Shown here piece after piece: positions 2,699-62,462 of a DNA stretch of 64,000 nucleotides (position 1 is the first letter of the stretch; every line of letters begins with the position of its first letter). Origin of the DNA: Escherichia phage Ec_Makalu_003; the sequence record MN882349.1; one strand, 5' to 3'. Both the position numbers and the translations under genes were made by a program. The notes beneath the pieces are model-generated. The model searched no databases, was not told where the DNA came from, and worked only from the letters and a program-made list of their open reading frames with translations.

Positions 2699-3268
2699 AT
2701 GGTTGAAATTCTTCCTATGAGTTCAAAATTGGAGGATATCAGCGAGCGAGAAATCTTTGAGGTGGTGTTCTCTTATAAGGCAACGCCACCTGATGAAAAT
2801 ACCACATACACGATTAAAGAGTTTAAGATCAGCGAGTATCGCCCTAATAAGGGCGTTACCGTTGAAGAAACTAAAATATCTGGTGAGTATCGGGATAGTT
2901 TTTCGCTTGGCGCGGATTCTCTTAAATATATAACGAAAGATCGAATTAAAAAATCTGCCGGAAGTTTTGATGATTTACCAGATCCAACTACAGCAGATCT
3001 ATATTATTTTAACGCTCCTACACGTCTACAGGAGGTTTATACTTATAAAGTAACCCTAACCTATATCCAATCTGTTTCAGAGTCTTCTGGTGGTTCAGGT
3101 GAAGGAAATAGTGGTGGTTCTAACAGTCGAGAGGGTGCTGGTGAAACTAATCCGCCTCCGGTAGTAACCGAACACACAATAGAGAAAGTTTATACTCAAA
3201 CTGTTTTTGGAAATTGGGATGTGTGGAGTAAACAGTTAAGAGATTATGTTAGAAGAAGTGAGGGATAA
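2699..3268 (+). CDS. hypothetical protein at the T4 gene 5.1 position
   Basis: ATG at 2699 with SD TGAGGT; track ORF begins at an in-frame TTG 2696. Gly/Ser-rich C-terminal segment; no recognisable domain. Confidence 0.6.
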   Translation: MVEILPMSSKLEDISEREIFEVVFSYKATPPDENTTYTIKEFKISEYRPNKGVTVEETKISGEYRDSFSLGADSLKYITKDRIKKSAGSFDDLPDPTTADLYYFNAPTRLQEVYTYKVTLTYIQSVSESSGGSGEGNSGGSNSREGAGETNPPPVVTEHTIEKVYTQTVFGNWDVWSKQLRDYVRRSEG

Positions 3269-3269
3269 T

Positions 3270-3809
3270 ATGATTGAAGTAATTCATTACACCAAAGAAG
3301 ATGAAATTTTATATAATAGACTACATGAACTATTTTATGAAGTTGATGGAAAGGTTTATAGAAGGTTCTCTCGTGGGCGTTCTAAAGCAGGAAGTCTAGT
3401 TGGTGGATTGAAGATAAATCCGTGTGGATATAGATATTGGAGACTTGCTGTTGATGGTAAAGAGTTTCAGAGGTCTCATGTTGTTTATCATATGCATCAC
3501 GGACACACTCCAAGAAAACCACTACAAATAGATCATATTAACACAAACTCCCTTGACGACCGAGTTAGCAATTTAAGACCAGCAACCGTTACTCAACAAA
3601 TGTACAACCAAAATAAACAATCCGATTGCACATCTTCATATATTGGTGTTAATTGGAATAAAAACTCCAAAAAATGGGAAGCTAGAATTAGAGTTAATGG
3701 AAAACGAATCCGTTTAGGTCTATTTGATAATGAAATTGACGCTGCGATTGCCTATAACACCGCTGCATTATCTAGAGATTCAAAAGTTAACAAATTAAAC
3801 GATGTATGA
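3270..3809 (+). CDS. HNH homing endonuclease with AP2-type DNA-binding domain
   Basis: HNH segment HMHHGHTPRKPLQIDHINTNSLDDRVSNLRP; AP2-like YIGVNWNKNSKKWEARIRVNGKRIRLGLFDNEIDAAIAYN. Start 3270 chosen (SD GAGGGA); in-frame ATG 3246 also possible. Free-standing between 5.1 and 5.4. Confidence 0.75.
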   Translation: MIEVIHYTKEDEILYNRLHELFYEVDGKVYRRFSRGRSKAGSLVGGLKINPCGYRYWRLAVDGKEFQRSHVVYHMHHGHTPRKPLQIDHINTNSLDDRVSNLRPATVTQQMYNQNKQSDCTSSYIGVNWNKNSKKWEARIRVNGKRIRLGLFDNEIDAAIAYNTAALSRDSKVNKLNDV

Positions 3810-3824
3810 ATATGGGGGTGTTTA

Positions 3825-4118
3825 ATGGCTGGATTATCCTACGATAAAGCTAAAACTACAGGGCACGGAAACTACCCACCTACGGTAATTAATGCAACTC
3901 AATCTAAGGTATTTGTTGAGGGTATCCCTGTATTAGTCGAAGGAGACCCAATTACACCACATACAAAAACAACAAAACCTTATGATACACACGGGGGAAC
4001 TACGGTCGCCAGTACCCCGAAAGTATTTGTTACCGGAAAGAAAGCAATTCAAATGGCAGATCGTATTAGCTGTGGCGATACCGTCGCTATGGCATCACCG
4101 AAGGTATTCATAAAATGA
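3825..4118 (+). CDS. 5.4: PAAR-repeat baseplate spike tip protein gp5.4
   Basis: 97 aa, same size as T4 gp5.4; PAAR-like segments ([27 protein letters not shown]); directly precedes gene 6. Confidence 0.75.
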
Positions 4119-6019
4119 CAAAGCAAAAGATTACACAAATTCCTGATATTTTTAATGCTGCTACATTCGATGAAATTAAAAGCGCATTAACCGACTGGAT
4201 GAGAAACCAGGAAGAATTTAAAGATTTTGATTTTAATGGTGCTGGTATTAACGTATTGATGGACTTGCTCGCATATAACACTCTGTATATTCAGCAATTC
4301 GCCAACGCCGCGCTATATGAATCTTTTATCAGAACGGCAATTAAGCGTAGTTCAGTTGTTCAAGCCGCGCAAGATTTAGGATATTTGCCAGCGAGTAAAA
4401 CTAGTGCATCGACTACAATTATGTTGCATGTTTCCCATCCACGAAATCCGGCAAGTATTCGAATCCCACGAGGGACTAAATTTATTGCAAGTGTGGATCG
4501 CCAGACTTCTTACCCATTTGTTACTACAGAAGACGTTGTGAGCGTTTTAGGTTCAAATGGTTTATATACGCCTATGCTTAAAGTCGCACAAGGTCGTATT
4601 GTTCGTACAGAAATGTTATTTGATCCGAAGAAACAAATTCTGATCCGTGACCCTGATATTGACCGCGCTCAGGTTAAATTGTGGGTGGACGGTGCTGAAT
4701 GGAAAGACTGGACACGAGAAAGTATTGTTAATGCAACTGGCGCAAGCAATATTTTCTATATGCGTGAAACCGTAGACGGACATACAGAAATTTTCTTTGG
4801 TGAAGGTGAATCAACCTTATCTGCGGCTGGCGGGGCGCTGGAAGCAAATTATATTGGTGGACTTAAGCCGTCAACTGGCGCTAATATTGTTATCGAATAT
4901 ATCAGCACTAAGGGCGCGGAAGCAAACGGTTCAGTTAATTTCACATACGCGGATACCCTTGCATCTATCTCTATTGTTAAAATTATTGAGAATCCGACAA
5001 ATGATCGTGATTATGTCGGTGCAGATGGTGGTGGTGATCCTGAATCAATCGAACGTATCCGTGAACTTGCTCCGGTAATGCGTGAATCTCAGCGTCGTTG
5101 TGTAACTGCTTCCGACTACGAGGCTTTTGTTTCTAGCCGTTTTGGTAGTATTGTTCAGGCGGTACAATGTTTCACCGACCGAGAGAAACCGGGTTATGCT
5201 TTTGTTGCTGTTAAGCCTAAATCTGGATTGCGCTTGACAACTGTTCAAAAAGAAGATATGCGCGATTATCTGGCAAAATATAATCTTGCCCCTATCACAC
5301 CGAGCATCATTGACCCTAACTATCTGTATATTAAACAGAATATTAAAGTTTCCTATTCAATCAACGACTTGTCAGAATCAGAGCAGTGGTTGCGTGGTGC
5401 GGTCATTGATCAGATTGATGCATATTACACCGACGAAGTGGAAATTTTTAACCAGACCTTTAGTAAGTCTAAAATGCTTGCGCGCATCGACAAAGCTGAT
5501 GTATCTGTGATAGGTTCTAGTGCAGAAATCGAGATGGTGCGAGAGATCGACAACTTCTATAAAGCACCGATGGCTGGAATCAAGTTTTTAAACCAGTATA
5601 AGAGCGGAATCAAGTCTAGTTCATTCAACTTCGAAAAGGACGACAAGCAATATCCGATCCATTATGTAAGTACAGAAATGAACAAAGAATCCGGTTTAGC
5701 TAAATTGCTGGTTGGACCTTTCCCTGTTGGTTCTGCAATCGCTTTACCGCACTATTCCGGCACTGATTTTGATAAAGAGGTTATCGACGGTGCGGACCTA
5801 TACTTTGAGGTTGGAGAGGTTCAGCATTATGACGACCTTATTTCATGGGATCTGGGTAAACTGAATATCAATAGCGATCGCTTTACTGGTTCATATATTG
5901 AGTTGACAGCTAAACCGATTGCTGATAACATCTTTACTAAAGACGGTTCTTTGATCGTGTTTGAAAACGATCTCCGTCCTCAGTACACAACTATTAGTCT
6001 GGAGGCAATTGCTCAATGA
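4115..6019 (+). CDS. 6: baseplate wedge subunit gp6
   Basis: 634 aa (T4 gp6 660 aa); start overlaps gene 5.4 stop; gene order. Confidence 0.85.
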
Positions 6020-20800: not shown

Positions 20801-24114
<3,314 letters not shown>

Positions 24115-58858: not shown

Positions 58859-59038
58859 TTACATAACAATCACGCCAGCCGTTGAAAGTTGATGTTTCAA
58901 CTGAGCATTTTCTGCTACTGTCAAATCAATGATTTCTTGTGACGCTGCAATCATATAACCATTGGTGATATTGTTTTGCATCAGTTCAATGGTTTCTTCG
59001 TTGTAGCGGATTTTAGCGATGATTTCGTTGAAGTTCAT
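58859..59038 (-). CDS. hypothetical small protein (59 aa)
   Basis: MNFNEIIAKIRYNEETIELMQNN...; preceded by cassette C10; the track start at 59104 extends into the promoter. Confidence 0.5.
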   Translation of the reverse strand: MNFNEIIAKIRYNEETIELMQNNITNGYMIAASQEIIDLTVAENAQLKHQLSTAGVIVM

Positions 59039-59072
59039 AATTGATTCTCCTAGTTCGTTTCGGTATGTGTGC

Positions 59073-59101
59073 AGTATAGGGGATCGCCGATCCCCTGTCA
59101 A
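59073..59101 (-). promoter_or_regulatory. repeated early promoter cassette C10 (TTGACA-17-TATACT)
   Basis: Spacer GGGGATCGGCGATCCCC identical to C2; begins right after the HNH gene stop. Confidence 0.6.
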
Positions 59102-59114
59102 CAACTTTTTTGAA

Positions 59115-59591
59115 TTATTTTTCTTGATGCTCGCGCTCGTACTTTTCGAAATAAAATTCTACTGGCTGATCGTGGATTGAAAGCAAGCCAAAGCGTTTAG
59201 CCGCACGTAATCCCATGTTACGTTGAATGTACTTCTGGAAGTTCTCGCGTATACACTTACGCCAGTATTCTAAGCCCATACAGCTTTTGTAAAGATTGCA
59301 TTGCACACAAGCCGGATTCATGTTGTCAAGTATATCGTGCTCCGGTTTATGCATTCCTACAACCTTATACTTCCACGATCCATCATCATTACGGGCAATT
59401 CGTCCATTTTCATCATAGACTACTTTTGAGCGTCGCAATACTGGTTTGATGTGGTCTGCGTGCCAGCGATCCCCTAGTTCCTCGCCACAATAGGCACAAC
59501 GCCCACCGTATTTCATTTTCAGGATCTGGCGTTGCTCTTTCTTTGACAATTTTTTAGGTTTAGGGGCTTTCGCCCCTTCATTATCACACAT
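59115..59591 (-). CDS. HNH endonuclease
   Basis: 158 aa; CAYCGEEL ... WHADHIKPV ... NMNPACVQCN; start overlaps the 3' end of DNA ligase gene 30. Confidence 0.75.
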   Translation of the reverse strand: MCDNEGAKAPKPKKLSKKEQRQILKMKYGGRCAYCGEELGDRWHADHIKPVLRRSKVVYDENGRIARNDDGSWKYKVVGMHKPEHDILDNMNPACVQCNLYKSCMGLEYWRKCIRENFQKYIQRNMGLRAAKRFGLLSIHDQPVEFYFEKYEREHQEK

Positions 59592-61080
59592 CGAATACCT
59601 CTTTTACTGTATTTGCAGTGGTCTTGTCGTAGCGAATACGTTTGATGATTGGGAGAAATAAAGAGAACTCCGGTTCATCTTCTTTACGTGATTTGCTGCG
59701 GATATATCCGTTGCATGTCATCTCAATGACTTTTCCGATCAGGTTATGACGGTCAGCCCATAACATTTCTCGGTCGAGTTCATTTCGACGATCGAACGGA
59801 ATTACACGTTCAATACCATCATCATCTTTTTCGGTTGTGGTGTCGGTCAATCCCGATCCGGTGTTAGTCGTCATTCGTCCGCACGCACTACGGACAGTAA
59901 AACCGCCTACCTTGTTAGGATCTTTACTATGCGGATATACATCAACAATTTCCGCGTCGAAGTCAATCACTTCTTTAAATTTAACCTGATCTTTACTGCG
60001 ACGATCTTCAAATACACCATGTAAATTTTTAAGGATAATACCTTCTAATCCCATGTTGACATAACGATGATATACTTCGCGAGCTTCATCGATATTGTTA
60101 ACTACAGTGTTTTCGATTATCTGAACACGAGGATCGTTAAGTTCTTCAACAATCTGTTTTAGTTCTTCGAATCGATCTTTATATTGCTTCGTTGCTTTCT
60201 CGTTTCCGTAATACACATCACGGTCGATAACATCCCAGACAGTGTAAACAATACATTGGGCTTCTTCTTTTGGAATAGTTCCTTTCAGTGATTTGTTGAG
60301 GATACCATTTCCGGTCTGACGGTCTGCAACAACGGATTCTTTCACTGCTTCCGCTACTGGCGTTAATGGCATTTCCTCTTCTTCAAATATCCATGATAGA
60401 GTACCATCATAAACGCTCTCAACGAAGTTCTGCGCTGGTGTTTGAGAAAGGGTAGGCATATATACCAACTCACCATCTAAAACAATTCCACGGCCTCGTA
60501 GACGCTCTAAAACAGCAAACAAATCATCCAGCCCCTGATAGGTATTACCTGAACGGGTATAGATTGCTAATGTTTCTCCGTCAATATCAGCCATACCACG
60601 AGCGCCATCGCTTTTAAGTTGTGCATACGCCGGATATTTGATATTGGCAATAGTCTTATCAGAACATGACGATGCAAGGTGGCACGGCTGCTGAGGAATC
60701 AGCTTCTTCCATACCTTGTTTGCGGTGGTAGCGGAACAACCGCATTCCAGATCACGATTCAGGACCATCATTGCAACTTTAGCATCATCTTCTGACAAGC
60801 AAGTCAGAGTATCGGTAACTAGCTGTAATGCAGCATTACCAGTTACTTGACGCGTGGCAAGTTTATTTTTAAAGACCTGTAATGCACCGGATAAAGACAA
60901 TACAGACGAATAGCGAGACGGTTTATCGTATTTCTTTACGCCAAACGTAACCTGCTTGCAATATGCCAGATAAAAGCATTCTTTCAGCGTTTCATTGCTT
61001 GCAGATTCTTTCAGGATCTTTTCTTTCAGCGATGTTTTGTCAGTGGCTGCAAGCTGATTAATGATATTAAGAATTGACAT
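59584..61080 (-). CDS. 30: ATP-dependent DNA ligase gp30
   Basis: 498 aa from ATG 61080 (track uses upstream GTG 61086); motif I KYPAYAQLKSDGARG; TGNAA, MVLNRDLECG, ANKVWKKLIPQQP match recalled T4 DNA ligase. Confidence 0.9.
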   Translation of the reverse strand: MSILNIINQLAATDKTSLKEKILKESASNETLKECFYLAYCKQVTFGVKKYDKPSRYSSVLSLSGALQVFKNKLATRQVTGNAALQLVTDTLTCLSEDDAKVAMMVLNRDLECGCSATTANKVWKKLIPQQPCHLASSCSDKTIANIKYPAYAQLKSDGARGMADIDGETLAIYTRSGNTYQGLDDLFAVLERLRGRGIVLDGELVYMPTLSQTPAQNFVESVYDGTLSWIFEEEEMPLTPVAEAVKESVVADRQTGNGILNKSLKGTIPKEEAQCIVYTVWDVIDRDVYYGNEKATKQYKDRFEELKQIVEELNDPRVQIIENTVVNNIDEAREVYHRYVNMGLEGIILKNLHGVFEDRRSKDQVKFKEVIDFDAEIVDVYPHSKDPNKVGGFTVRSACGRMTTNTGSGLTDTTTEKDDDGIERVIPFDRRNELDREMLWADRHNLIGKVIEMTCNGYIRSKSRKEDEPEFSLFLPIIKRIRYDKTTANTVKEVFDV

Positions 61081-61546
61081 TTTCACCTCGTTTTGTTAAA
61101 CGTTCACGAATATCATTTAGGATACTACAAAATTCCGATTCGGTCAATATGGTCTTTAACGGATCAGTTCCACCTATGCTATGACGCAATTTCTTATTTC
61201 CGGTAGCGAGCAATGCTTTACAAAAATCTGGGTTATTTCGTGCCATCGTAACAAATGCCAGATGTACCAGTCTGTAATAATGCTCACTCATTCGATGAAT
61301 CGGGCGACCCTGAAAATATAGCATGTGATTCTCTATCTTTTCAGTCCTTCCGGTTCTTTTTGCTTTGCAGCCGTGCATCAAAAAGATTTCTCTTTGTCTC
61401 TGAGGGTTCTTAAATCTTAGCCCCTGTAAAAATCCTTCTGTGCTGTTAATATCGCAACCAAATAGACGGAATGGCCTTTTATTGAAATTACTCAACTCGC
61501 CAGATGGATAAGGTCCACCCGCATAGATATCAATTTCAGAAGTCAT
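61067..61546 (-). CDS. NADAR (YbiA-like) domain protein
   Basis: 159 aa; LSNF, INSTEGFLQGLRF, AKRTGR, CKALLATGNKKL...ILNDIRERL parallel the YbiA/NADAR pattern (FSNF, TSEHYFQAQKF, GR, ALLLAT...). Confidence 0.6.
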   Translation of the reverse strand: MTSEIDIYAGGPYPSGELSNFNKRPFRLFGCDINSTEGFLQGLRFKNPQRQREIFLMHGCKAKRTGRTEKIENHMLYFQGRPIHRMSEHYYRLVHLAFVTMARNNPDFCKALLATGNKKLRHSIGGTDPLKTILTESEFCSILNDIRERLTKRGENVNS

Positions 61547-61783: not shown

Positions 61784-62107
61784 TTAACCGTAAACTACCA
61801 CAATATTCTGTTTGTGTGTTACAGTCCATTTCAGGTCGATCTCTTCTTCCTTCTTAACGCCGTTAATAACGTCTGGATGAGGAACTTTATTCATCTTGCC
61901 GTGTGGCAGTAGAACAGTTTTACCCAGCAATTCTTTATCTACAGTTTCACCAATATCAATAATCTTACCTACCAGCGGAATCTCGCCCATAGTGCGCTTT
62001 TGCTCAATAATGATCCCCATAGAGCTTTTTACTTCGGTTCCTGCGCTTTCTGCTTTAGCTTCGATAATTACATAATCACCAAGTGCTTTAGGAGTTTTAA
62101 CGGTCAT
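61784..62107 (-). CDS. 31: co-chaperonin gp31 (GroES-like)
   Basis: 107 aa (T4 gp31 111 aa); GDYVIIEA and KMNKVPHP resemble T4 gp31 and the GroES fold; SD GAGGTAA. Confidence 0.8.
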   Translation of the reverse strand: MTVKTPKALGDYVIIEAKAESAGTEVKSSMGIIIEQKRTMGEIPLVGKIIDIGETVDKELLGKTVLLPHGKMNKVPHPDVINGVKKEEEIDLKWTVTHKQNIVVVYG

Positions 62108-62147: not shown

Positions 62148-62462
62148 TTATTTATAAATTTCGACGATCTGCGCTGGAGTCAGCCCGTCTACATTAATCA
62201 GACTATCAAGCCCAAAACTACGGAAACCTTCAACTGCAATTTCATATACTGGCAAAGATGTTTCTGATTCTTTACGCGGTTTTTCTACATTAGGAACTAA
62301 CCATTTTTCGTATGTTTCAAAAGGCATCAGTGCCGGATCTCGCGTGGCGATCATCTCGCGGACAGTACCATCTTTCTTAGTAAACTGCAAAGAGTGAGTA
62401 CCGACCGAAAACATTTTCTTTAGTGCTTCACGAAGTGCGATAATATCAATTTGTTCAGTCAT
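62148..62462 (-). CDS. hypothetical protein
   Basis: 104 aa from ATG 62462 (track uses upstream TTG 62468); sits between cd and gene 31. Confidence 0.55.
   Translation of the reverse strand: MTEQIDIIALREALKKMFSVGTHSLQFTKKDGTVREMIATRDPALMPFETYEKWLVPNVEKPRKESETSLPVYEIAVEGFRSFGLDSLINVDGLTPAQIVEIYK
62149..62156 (-). promoter_or_regulatory. T4-type late promoter TATAAATA upstream of gene 31 (minus strand)
   Basis: Minus-strand TATAAATA about 41 nt upstream of the gene 31 ATG, inside the 3' end of the upstream ORF. Confidence 0.45.

Follow-up and report, generated by a model that had tools for sequence, protein, structure and literature searches.

An HNH endonuclease gene overlapping DNA ligase in a Krischvirus phage: a probable resident ortholog of RB49 ORF212

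In Escherichia phage Ec_Makalu_003, the DNA ligase gene ends inside a small gene for an HNH protein. Is this gene a selfish nuclease that jumps between phages, or a resident of the genome that happens to encode a nuclease? The original prediction, made on the window (the whole stretch of 64,000 nucleotides of record MN882349.1 analysed here), took it to be one of three independent selfish nuclease elements, the others being an HNH-AP2 gene and an intein endonuclease. The features that bear on the question are collected in Table 1. The best explanation, to which we assign a probability of roughly 0.7, is that the gene is the resident ortholog of RB49 ORF212, acquired once in the distant past and since then inherited vertically, under selection, as a ligase-coupled HNH nuclease.

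Table 1. Features of the window discussed in the text, with their positions and the basis for each
Feature	Position	Strand	Basis or remark
HNH_3 + AP2 endonuclease gene	3246-3809	+	between gp5 (891-2690) and gp6 (4115-6019)
Large terminase, 938 aa, with LAGLIDADG insert	21295-24111	+	
ORF209 homolog, 59 aa	58859..59038	-	phrog_14803 = residues 23-81 of a longer TTG-start ORF; 180-nt CDSs in relatives
PeSL-type cassette	59045..59110	-	directly past the HNH stop codon
PeSL cassette, SD AGGAG	59051-59047	-	
PeSL cassette, -10 TATACT	59078-59073	-	
PeSL cassette, stem-loop GGGGATCGGCGATCCCC	59095-59079	-	
PeSL cassette, -35 TTGACA	59101-59096	-	
HNH endonuclease gene, 158 aa	59115..59591	-	ORF list; ATG start
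Ligase/HNH junction	59584..59603	-	read off the sequence; AAGAGG ribosome-binding site 59603-59598 and overlap ATGTGTGA 59591-59584
ATP-dependent DNA ligase, gene 30	59584..61086	-	DNA_ligase_A_M, E 2.8e-22; phrog_114, E 3e-142
gp30.3 homolog	61067..61546	-	Pfam Phage_30_3, E 5e-39; cistron upstream of ligase
ORF215 homolog, 54 aa	61536..61700	-	ORF; annotated in all relatives
Terminator-like hairpin	61772-61754		

A known gene at the end of the ligase gene

The window comes from a Krischvirus, an RB49/Phi1/GEC-3S-like T4-type coliphage of the Straboviridae, and over the 4 kb surrounding the HNH gene it shares 94-99% identity with 58 complete Krischvirus genomes (RB49, Phi1, JSE, GEC-3S, Ec_Makalu_001 and Ec_Makalu_002 among others). 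Judged by its sequence, the HNH gene is the ortholog of RB49 ORF212 (RB49p212, NP_891783). RB49 ORF212, Phi1 ORF212, JSE EpJSE_00219 and GEC-3S BN201_0214 are the same gene, with 97.5-100% amino acid identity and with the position and gene 30 overlap seen in the window. The RB49 and JSE copies are a 157-aa variant that is followed directly by ORF211, whereas in the window the C-terminal variant is the 158-aa one and a PeSL cassette comes next. These four orthologs are all annotated as 'HNH endonuclease', and RefSeq uses the same label. It is a known gene, present in GenBank from the RB49 genome onwards and routinely annotated. RB49ORF212c appears, as an HNH endonuclease, among the 'putative mobile DNA elements' of Nolan et al. 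2006 (PMC1524935), and Table 5 of Petrov et al. 2010 credits RB49 and phi-1 with one 'other HNH' putative homing endonuclease each (PMC2993671). A literature search for Krischvirus and HNH endonuclease in combination found no paper in the library searched. The composition of the gene, checked for signs of foreign origin, is unremarkable (43.8% GC, against 40.8% for the window).

The junction with the ligase gene is as originally described: the ORF and the junction sequence confirm a 158-aa HNH reading frame that shares 8 nt with the 3' end of the ligase gene. The ATG of the HNH gene (59591-59589) and the TGA of the ligase gene (59586-59584) lie within this shared stretch, and the minus strand reads ...GTATTCGATGTGTGATAA across the junction. 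The ribosome-binding site of the HNH gene sits 6 nt 5' of the ATG, inside the ligase gene, and the records of Ec_Makalu_001 and Ec_Makalu_002 have a ribosome-binding site annotated at the equivalent position. The ligase itself, annotated as gene 30 in RB49, Phi1 and JSE, is 498 or 500 aa long, the ATG annotated in relatives corresponding to position 61080 here. Upstream of it, the gp30.3 homolog overlaps the adjoining genes with its start and stop codons, and the ORF215 homolog is the first small cistron past the gene 31 terminator.

When the 3' part of the ligase gene was scanned for a promoter belonging to the HNH gene, neither the T4-type late-promoter motif TATAAATA nor a sigma-70 site better than chance was found. 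The HNH gene is the last cistron of a same-strand string consisting of ORF215, 30.3, 30 (ligase) and HNH. Since it lacks a promoter of its own and both its ribosome-binding site and its start codon fall within the last part of the ligase gene, co-transcription and translational coupling with ligase are most likely. On the minus strand of the window the late-promoter motif occurs only once, at 62149-62156, where it precedes the gene 31 homolog (61784-62107) by 42 nt.

The protein and its relatives

The HNH motifs claimed for the protein are borne out by profile searches. The residues concerned are C32-x2-C35, H44-A-D-H47-I-K-P, N90 and C95-x2-C98-N99. Pfam HNH (PF01844) matches with 27 bits (E 5e-6), above its curated cut-off of 21.4 bits, and likewise matches 73 of the 76 members of the family; the phrog_2118 profile, 'HNH endonuclease', covers residues 4-157, that is, the full length, at E 7.9e-55. 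In an alignment of the 76 homologs, C32, C35, D46, H47, N90, C95, C98 and N99 are invariant, and all catalytic and zinc-binding residues are also intact across the four ligase-linked lineages described below. Conservation extends to a C-terminal module (W110, R111, R129, F146, F148 and E149). The protein is a member of the HNH superfamily, including its beta-beta-alpha-metal fold.

Structural comparison of the protein gave values of 8.0-7.0 with Cas9 HNH domains, 6.3 with McrA, 6.2 with CBASS Cap5, 6.1 with the HNH protein of phage GVE2, 5.9 with the Gme HNH nickase and 3.9 with T4 endonuclease VII, and the Foldseek results agree with these values. Sequence identity to the Cas9/McrA/Gme/GVE2-type nucleases (PDB 7enh, 7mpz, 6ghc, 4h9d and 5h0o) is only 15-26%, and two elements of the window protein are absent from those structures, namely a beta-hairpin of about 25 residues between the DH and N motifs, which is specific to the clade and common to its four ligase-linked lineages, and a conserved C-terminal module of three helices. 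No Pfam DNA-binding domain (NUMOD, AP2, HTH or similar) was detected in the window protein or in any family member; what it does possess is a basic tail at the N-terminus and, at the C-terminus, the conserved helical module. Pfam NinG and Endonuclease_7 give weak matches to a few members of the family. A sequence search of solved structures gave no match below E 0.19, and BFVD yielded uncharacterised phage HNH proteins only. An anti-phage defence protein was also considered and rejected, the PADLOC and NCBIfam matches (PtuB, Cas9, retron HNH) being sub-threshold and generic. We infer that the product is a small HNH nuclease of the Cas9/McrA type, bearing a CCCC zinc finger, which would cut or nick DNA in a metal-dependent manner.

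The nearest relatives outside the ligase-linked group are phrog_2118 nucleases of siphophages and prophages, such as Salmonella phage Sasha gp76, Edwardsiella phage eiAU-183 gp20 and Escherichia phage Bas77 gp1, at 36-50% identity. They are similar to the window protein over the full length, C-terminal module included, and typically lie within operons with overlapping start and stop codons. They differ from it in lacking the basic N-terminal extension found in the Krischvirus and L006 (see below) members of the ligase-linked clade. Their surroundings are also different: they are encoded by phages and prophages of 30-65 kb, in replication/recombination or early modules, and never beside a T4-type ligase. 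The eiAU homolog lies between the DNA polymerase and helicase genes, that of Sasha is near primase, methyltransferase and ParB, and others are beside RecT or in prophage early regions. The family context is not uniform, since the Bas77 homolog is just upstream of the large terminase gene.

Distribution and divergence of the gene and its surroundings

The check proposed for mobility was the presence or absence of the gene at the ligase locus of related phages, and its outcome goes against a mobile element. The HNH gene is found in every full-length Krischvirus record, that is, in 58 of the 58 phage records with a full ligase gene, at the same position, always overlapping ligase, and at 95.7-99.6% nucleotide identity. 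Ligase is present in 59 records; the 59th, in which HNH is missing, is a 1.5-kb partial RB49 fragment (AJ550428) that ends before the ligase 3' end. A ligase scan of IMG/VR found HNH at both of two Krischvirus loci and at none of four distant T4-like loci, and a scan of metagenomes found it at all three Krischvirus loci and at none of 77 distant loci, where ligase identity was at most 42%. An intermediate ligase locus without HNH was encountered in none of the phage database, IMG/VR and metagenome scans, the ligases of HNH-less relatives being at most 44% identical. Outside the RB49-like clade, no other sampled T4-like genus has HNH beside ligase; T4 has alt.1 at the place where RB49-like phages carry it. 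One metagenomic Krischvirus fragment (MAVA01000210.1, 1029 bp) has three single-base homopolymer deletions in the HNH gene and, past codon ~148, switches to the start of ORF208 in reverse complement; we take it for a probable artefact of sequencing or assembly and did not count it as a pseudogene.

The other two nucleases of the window served as positive controls, with the same database and search mode. Both exist as predicted. Only 6 of about 58 Krischvirus records contain the HNH-AP2 gene (five isolates: KFS-EC, G37-3, G5211, MIZ4 and MIZ5), a genuine presence/absence polymorphism; the HNH-AP2 gene of RB49 (ORF040) is at another locus, between genes 47 and a-gt.4. The insert in the large terminase, in which LAGLIDADG_3 matches residues 364-422 ahead of the Terminase_6N domain, looks like an intein from its sequence; of about 58 records, only 11 contain its DNA (21900-22700), and the Ec_Makalu_002 copy is 100% identical. 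Mobile nucleases are expected to be distributed sporadically in this way. Like the ligase-linked gene, the free-standing HNH homing endonucleases of T-even phages (the Mob family and the HNH-AP2 class) are small stand-alone HNH ORFs beside conserved genes. In contrast to the HNH-AP2 protein, which belongs to phrog_99 and carries an AP2 module, the ligase-linked protein belongs to phrog_2118 and has neither an AP2 nor a NUMOD module, and, unlike the mobile T-even HNH endonucleases, it has co-diverged with its neighbour gene. Of the three independent selfish nucleases originally claimed, two stand, and on present evidence the ligase-linked HNH does not.

The substitution patterns agree with those of the flanking genes. 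Across 13 Krischvirus genomes, dN/dS is 0.047 for HNH (dS 0.14), 0.042 for ligase and 0.030 for gp30.3; the dS of HNH is similar to that of its neighbours, and none of the 13 copies contains a stop codon or frameshift. Deeper comparisons were provided by diverged relatives that are known from metagenomes only. In L006 (SRR8048111), both the ligase C-terminus and HNH are 70% identical to the window, the HNH start overlaps the ligase stop (TAATG), and dN from the window is 0.229 for HNH and 0.224 for ligase. In L119, ligase is 60% and HNH 58% identical, and HNH begins 16 nt past ligase. The contigs L115 and L116 (ERZ27275837 and ERZ27275846), T4-like and 168-169 kb long, show 51% identity for ligase, 51% for gp30.3 and 60% for HNH, with a ligase/HNH overlap of 23 nt and the gene order rnlA / spanin / pseT / cd / ... 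/ 30.3 / ligase / HNH / ORFan array. L115/L116 and L119 appear to be uncultured RB49-like T4-type phages with the Krischvirus gene order around genes 31-30. Comparisons of identity, dN and dS revealed no history of HNH discordant with that of the flanking genes. What was found is a conserved resident gene with no mobility signatures (universal, with no HNH-less locus in the clade, under purifying selection and co-diverged with ligase), the very outcome that the original prediction had named in advance as contradicting it. On these sequence comparisons, the ligase-linked HNH has the appearance of a resident rather than of a selfish element on the move.

The gene is not untouched by recombination. 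Among 16 Krischvirus loci, the mean pairwise dS of its 3' half (59115-59350) is 0.29, with a maximum of 0.68, while that of the 5' half (59351-59591) is threefold lower, at 0.10; dN/dS is ~0.02 in each half, and the identity profiles around the gene are mosaic. Evidently, recombination tied to the cassette region reaches into the HNH gene with the protein preserved, and the dS of the 3' half suggests older haplotypes linked to the cassette region downstream.

That region opens with the predicted promoter cassette, which does follow HNH directly: TTGACA-17-TATACT at 59101-59073 (-) is the best sigma-70-like site of the 3.9 kb scanned, with 11 of 12 matches, and the stem-loop GGGGATC-GGC-GATCCCC sits within its spacer. 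A promoter is annotated at the equivalent position after HNH in GEC-3S. Such PeSL (promoter-early stem-loop) elements flank shuffled ORFan cassettes in RB49 and phi1 (Arbiol et al. 2010; PMC2839356). The 29-mer TTGACA-GGGGATCGGCGATCCCC-TATACT at 59073-59101 has an identical copy at 52297-52269 and near copies at 57956-57928 and 54429-54401 (-), and these 29-mers punctuate the small-ORF array downstream of HNH. The first cassette ORF of this hyperplastic region is the ORF209 homolog, listed as an 81-aa TTG-start ORF (58859-59104, -) but really a 59-aa ORF that starts at ATG 59038 and is served by the PeSL promoter and by an SD of its own. Neither the ORF210 nor the ORF211 cassette known from other Krischvirus phages is present in the window; most relatives have the ORF210 cassette between HNH and ORF209, a difference of ~394 bp. 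The order is HNH-209 in the window, SSG23 and Ec_Makalu_002, HNH-210-209 in Phi1, kvi, GEC-3S, W115, FL04 and Ec_Makalu_001, HNH-211-210-209 in RB49 and JSE, and HNH-211-209 in GoldenSnicker. The 158-aa HNH proteins end in '...EREHQEK' and are followed by PeSL, whereas the 157-aa proteins (22 of 58 records) end in '...ERENKE' and are followed after 7 nt by ORF211, without PeSL; ORF211, where present, takes the place of PeSL and the last HNH codons. ORF211 has a hydrophobic N-terminus and has been reported to be a homolog of an integron ORF (PMC2839356). The variable part of the locus is the small-ORF cassette array downstream, not HNH.

Origin and role of the nuclease

How might a nuclease gene have come to be fixed at this site? 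HNH would have been acquired once, from the family of small HNH nucleases found in the replication/recombination modules of siphophages and prophages. A single ancient acquisition is proposed because the gene is absent from ligase loci outside the clade and because the next-best homologs are at most 50% identical and lie elsewhere in their genomes. The acquisition would predate the split of Krischvirus from at least three other RB49-like lineages and the gene would since have passed down vertically together with ligase, strongly constrained by purifying selection. Past HNH, transcription may be attenuated and then re-started by the stem-loop and promoter of the PeSL cassette that opens the hyperplastic ORFan region. 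As to what the protein does for the phage, our preferred guess, held at somewhat under even odds, is the processing of replication, recombination or repair intermediates, with the nicks sealed by ligase; this role is favoured because the distant homologs adjoin genes for such functions. RB49-like phages are already equipped with the gp49 endonuclease VII and with the gp46/47 nuclease, gene 47 being annotated in RB49, so that it is not obvious why they would need another nuclease for recombination. The main alternative role, which we consider possible but clearly less probable, is that of a former homing endonuclease, now fixed, that excludes co-infecting relatives without HNH. Universal presence and purifying selection would also fit a homing endonuclease that was fixed and then kept for inter-phage competition, and an ancient homing origin with later fixation is conceivable.

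An active free-standing homing endonuclease is a different matter. Such an enzyme would cut the ligase-region alleles of phages without HNH and spread by recombinational repair, and a small protein with an HNH nuclease domain, encoded between a conserved gene and a variable region, at the position of T4 alt.1, is what one might picture. The gene has been counted among putative mobile elements (PMC1524935, PMC2993671), the identity around it is mosaic, and its absence from every other sampled T4-like genus means that it was horizontally acquired at some point. We nevertheless regard present-day homing as unlikely: there is no presence/absence polymorphism across the 58 records and all metagenomic Krischvirus loci, HNH has co-diverged with ligase over four lineages at a dN/dS equal to that of ligase, it has no promoter of its own and no detected NUMOD, AP2, HTH or similar module, and the truly mobile nucleases of the same genomes are sporadic. 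About as unlikely is the proposal that HNH works specifically with gp30, as a nickase that recognises a site or a structure and whose nicks would be sealed by the co-translated ligase for a programmed purpose, be it the start of recombination at PeSL stem-loops or the provision of clamp-loading nicks.

Very unlikely, in our estimation, is a helper nuclease for the PeSL elements, which would nick or cut at or near the GGGG...CCCC stem-loops and so stimulate the insertion, deletion or circularisation of ORFan cassettes. HNH does mark the exact point where the conserved 31-30 block gives way to the PeSL-rich hyperplastic region, every observed gain or loss of a cassette begins at its stop codon, and L115 and L006 likewise have a hairpin and a promoter after HNH. 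Moreover, Arbiol et al. posed the question of a protein that targets the PeSL stem-loop (PMC2839356), and there is a precedent in SegB, a T-even homing endonuclease that drives accessory loci to amplify segmentally (PMC13096335). However, this support is purely positional apart from the SegB precedent, hairpin-promoter cassettes occur at many other sites of the window far from HNH, the distant HNH homologs belong to phages without known PeSLs, and short homologies suffice for T4-type recombination. The least probable reading by far is a replacement or duplicate of T4 endonuclease VII, acting as a Holliday-junction resolvase or in packaging debranching, or else a packaging HNH protein of the HK97 gp74 type. 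The weak matches to 'endonuclease VII' PHROGs (phrog_1035, E 1e-9; phrog_2914, E 6e-7), the comparable length (158 vs 157 aa), the BFVD structural neighbours labelled 'recombination endonuclease VII' and the terminase-adjoining homolog of Bas77 point this way. Yet RB49 has its own gene 49 (RB49p061, 157 aa, phrog_423), the window HNH matches neither phrog_423 nor Pfam Endonuclease_7 (PF02945), and BLASTP against RB49 gp49 aligns 33 residues only (E 0.008). The terminase genes (20801-24111, +) are about 35 kb away on the opposite strand, the neighbours of HNH being ligase and ORFans, and the T4-type terminase has a nuclease of its own. Resident gene 49, family membership and gene context together largely refute this reading.

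A resident, ligase-coupled HNH gene, which we prefer, has consequences for how RB49-like phages are described. Counts of 'putative homing endonucleases' in these phages include ORF212 and need correction, since a clade-wide core accessory gene locked to ligase is unfit as evidence of mobile-element load. Set against the HNH-AP2 gene and the intein, the ligase-linked HNH offers a clean internal contrast for spotting nucleases that are truly mobile. If HNH were indeed a dedicated partner of gp30, the two would form a domesticated nuclease-ligase module instead of a selfish element, and nicking directed to PeSLs, if it occurs, would bear on cassette shuffling and mini-circles. Otherwise, the gene is an ordinary, known one, of little consequence beyond housekeeping. 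Should the nuclease cooperate with ligase or with the PeSL cassettes, however, it may provide a tractable entry to the remodelling of hyperplastic regions in T4-type phages.
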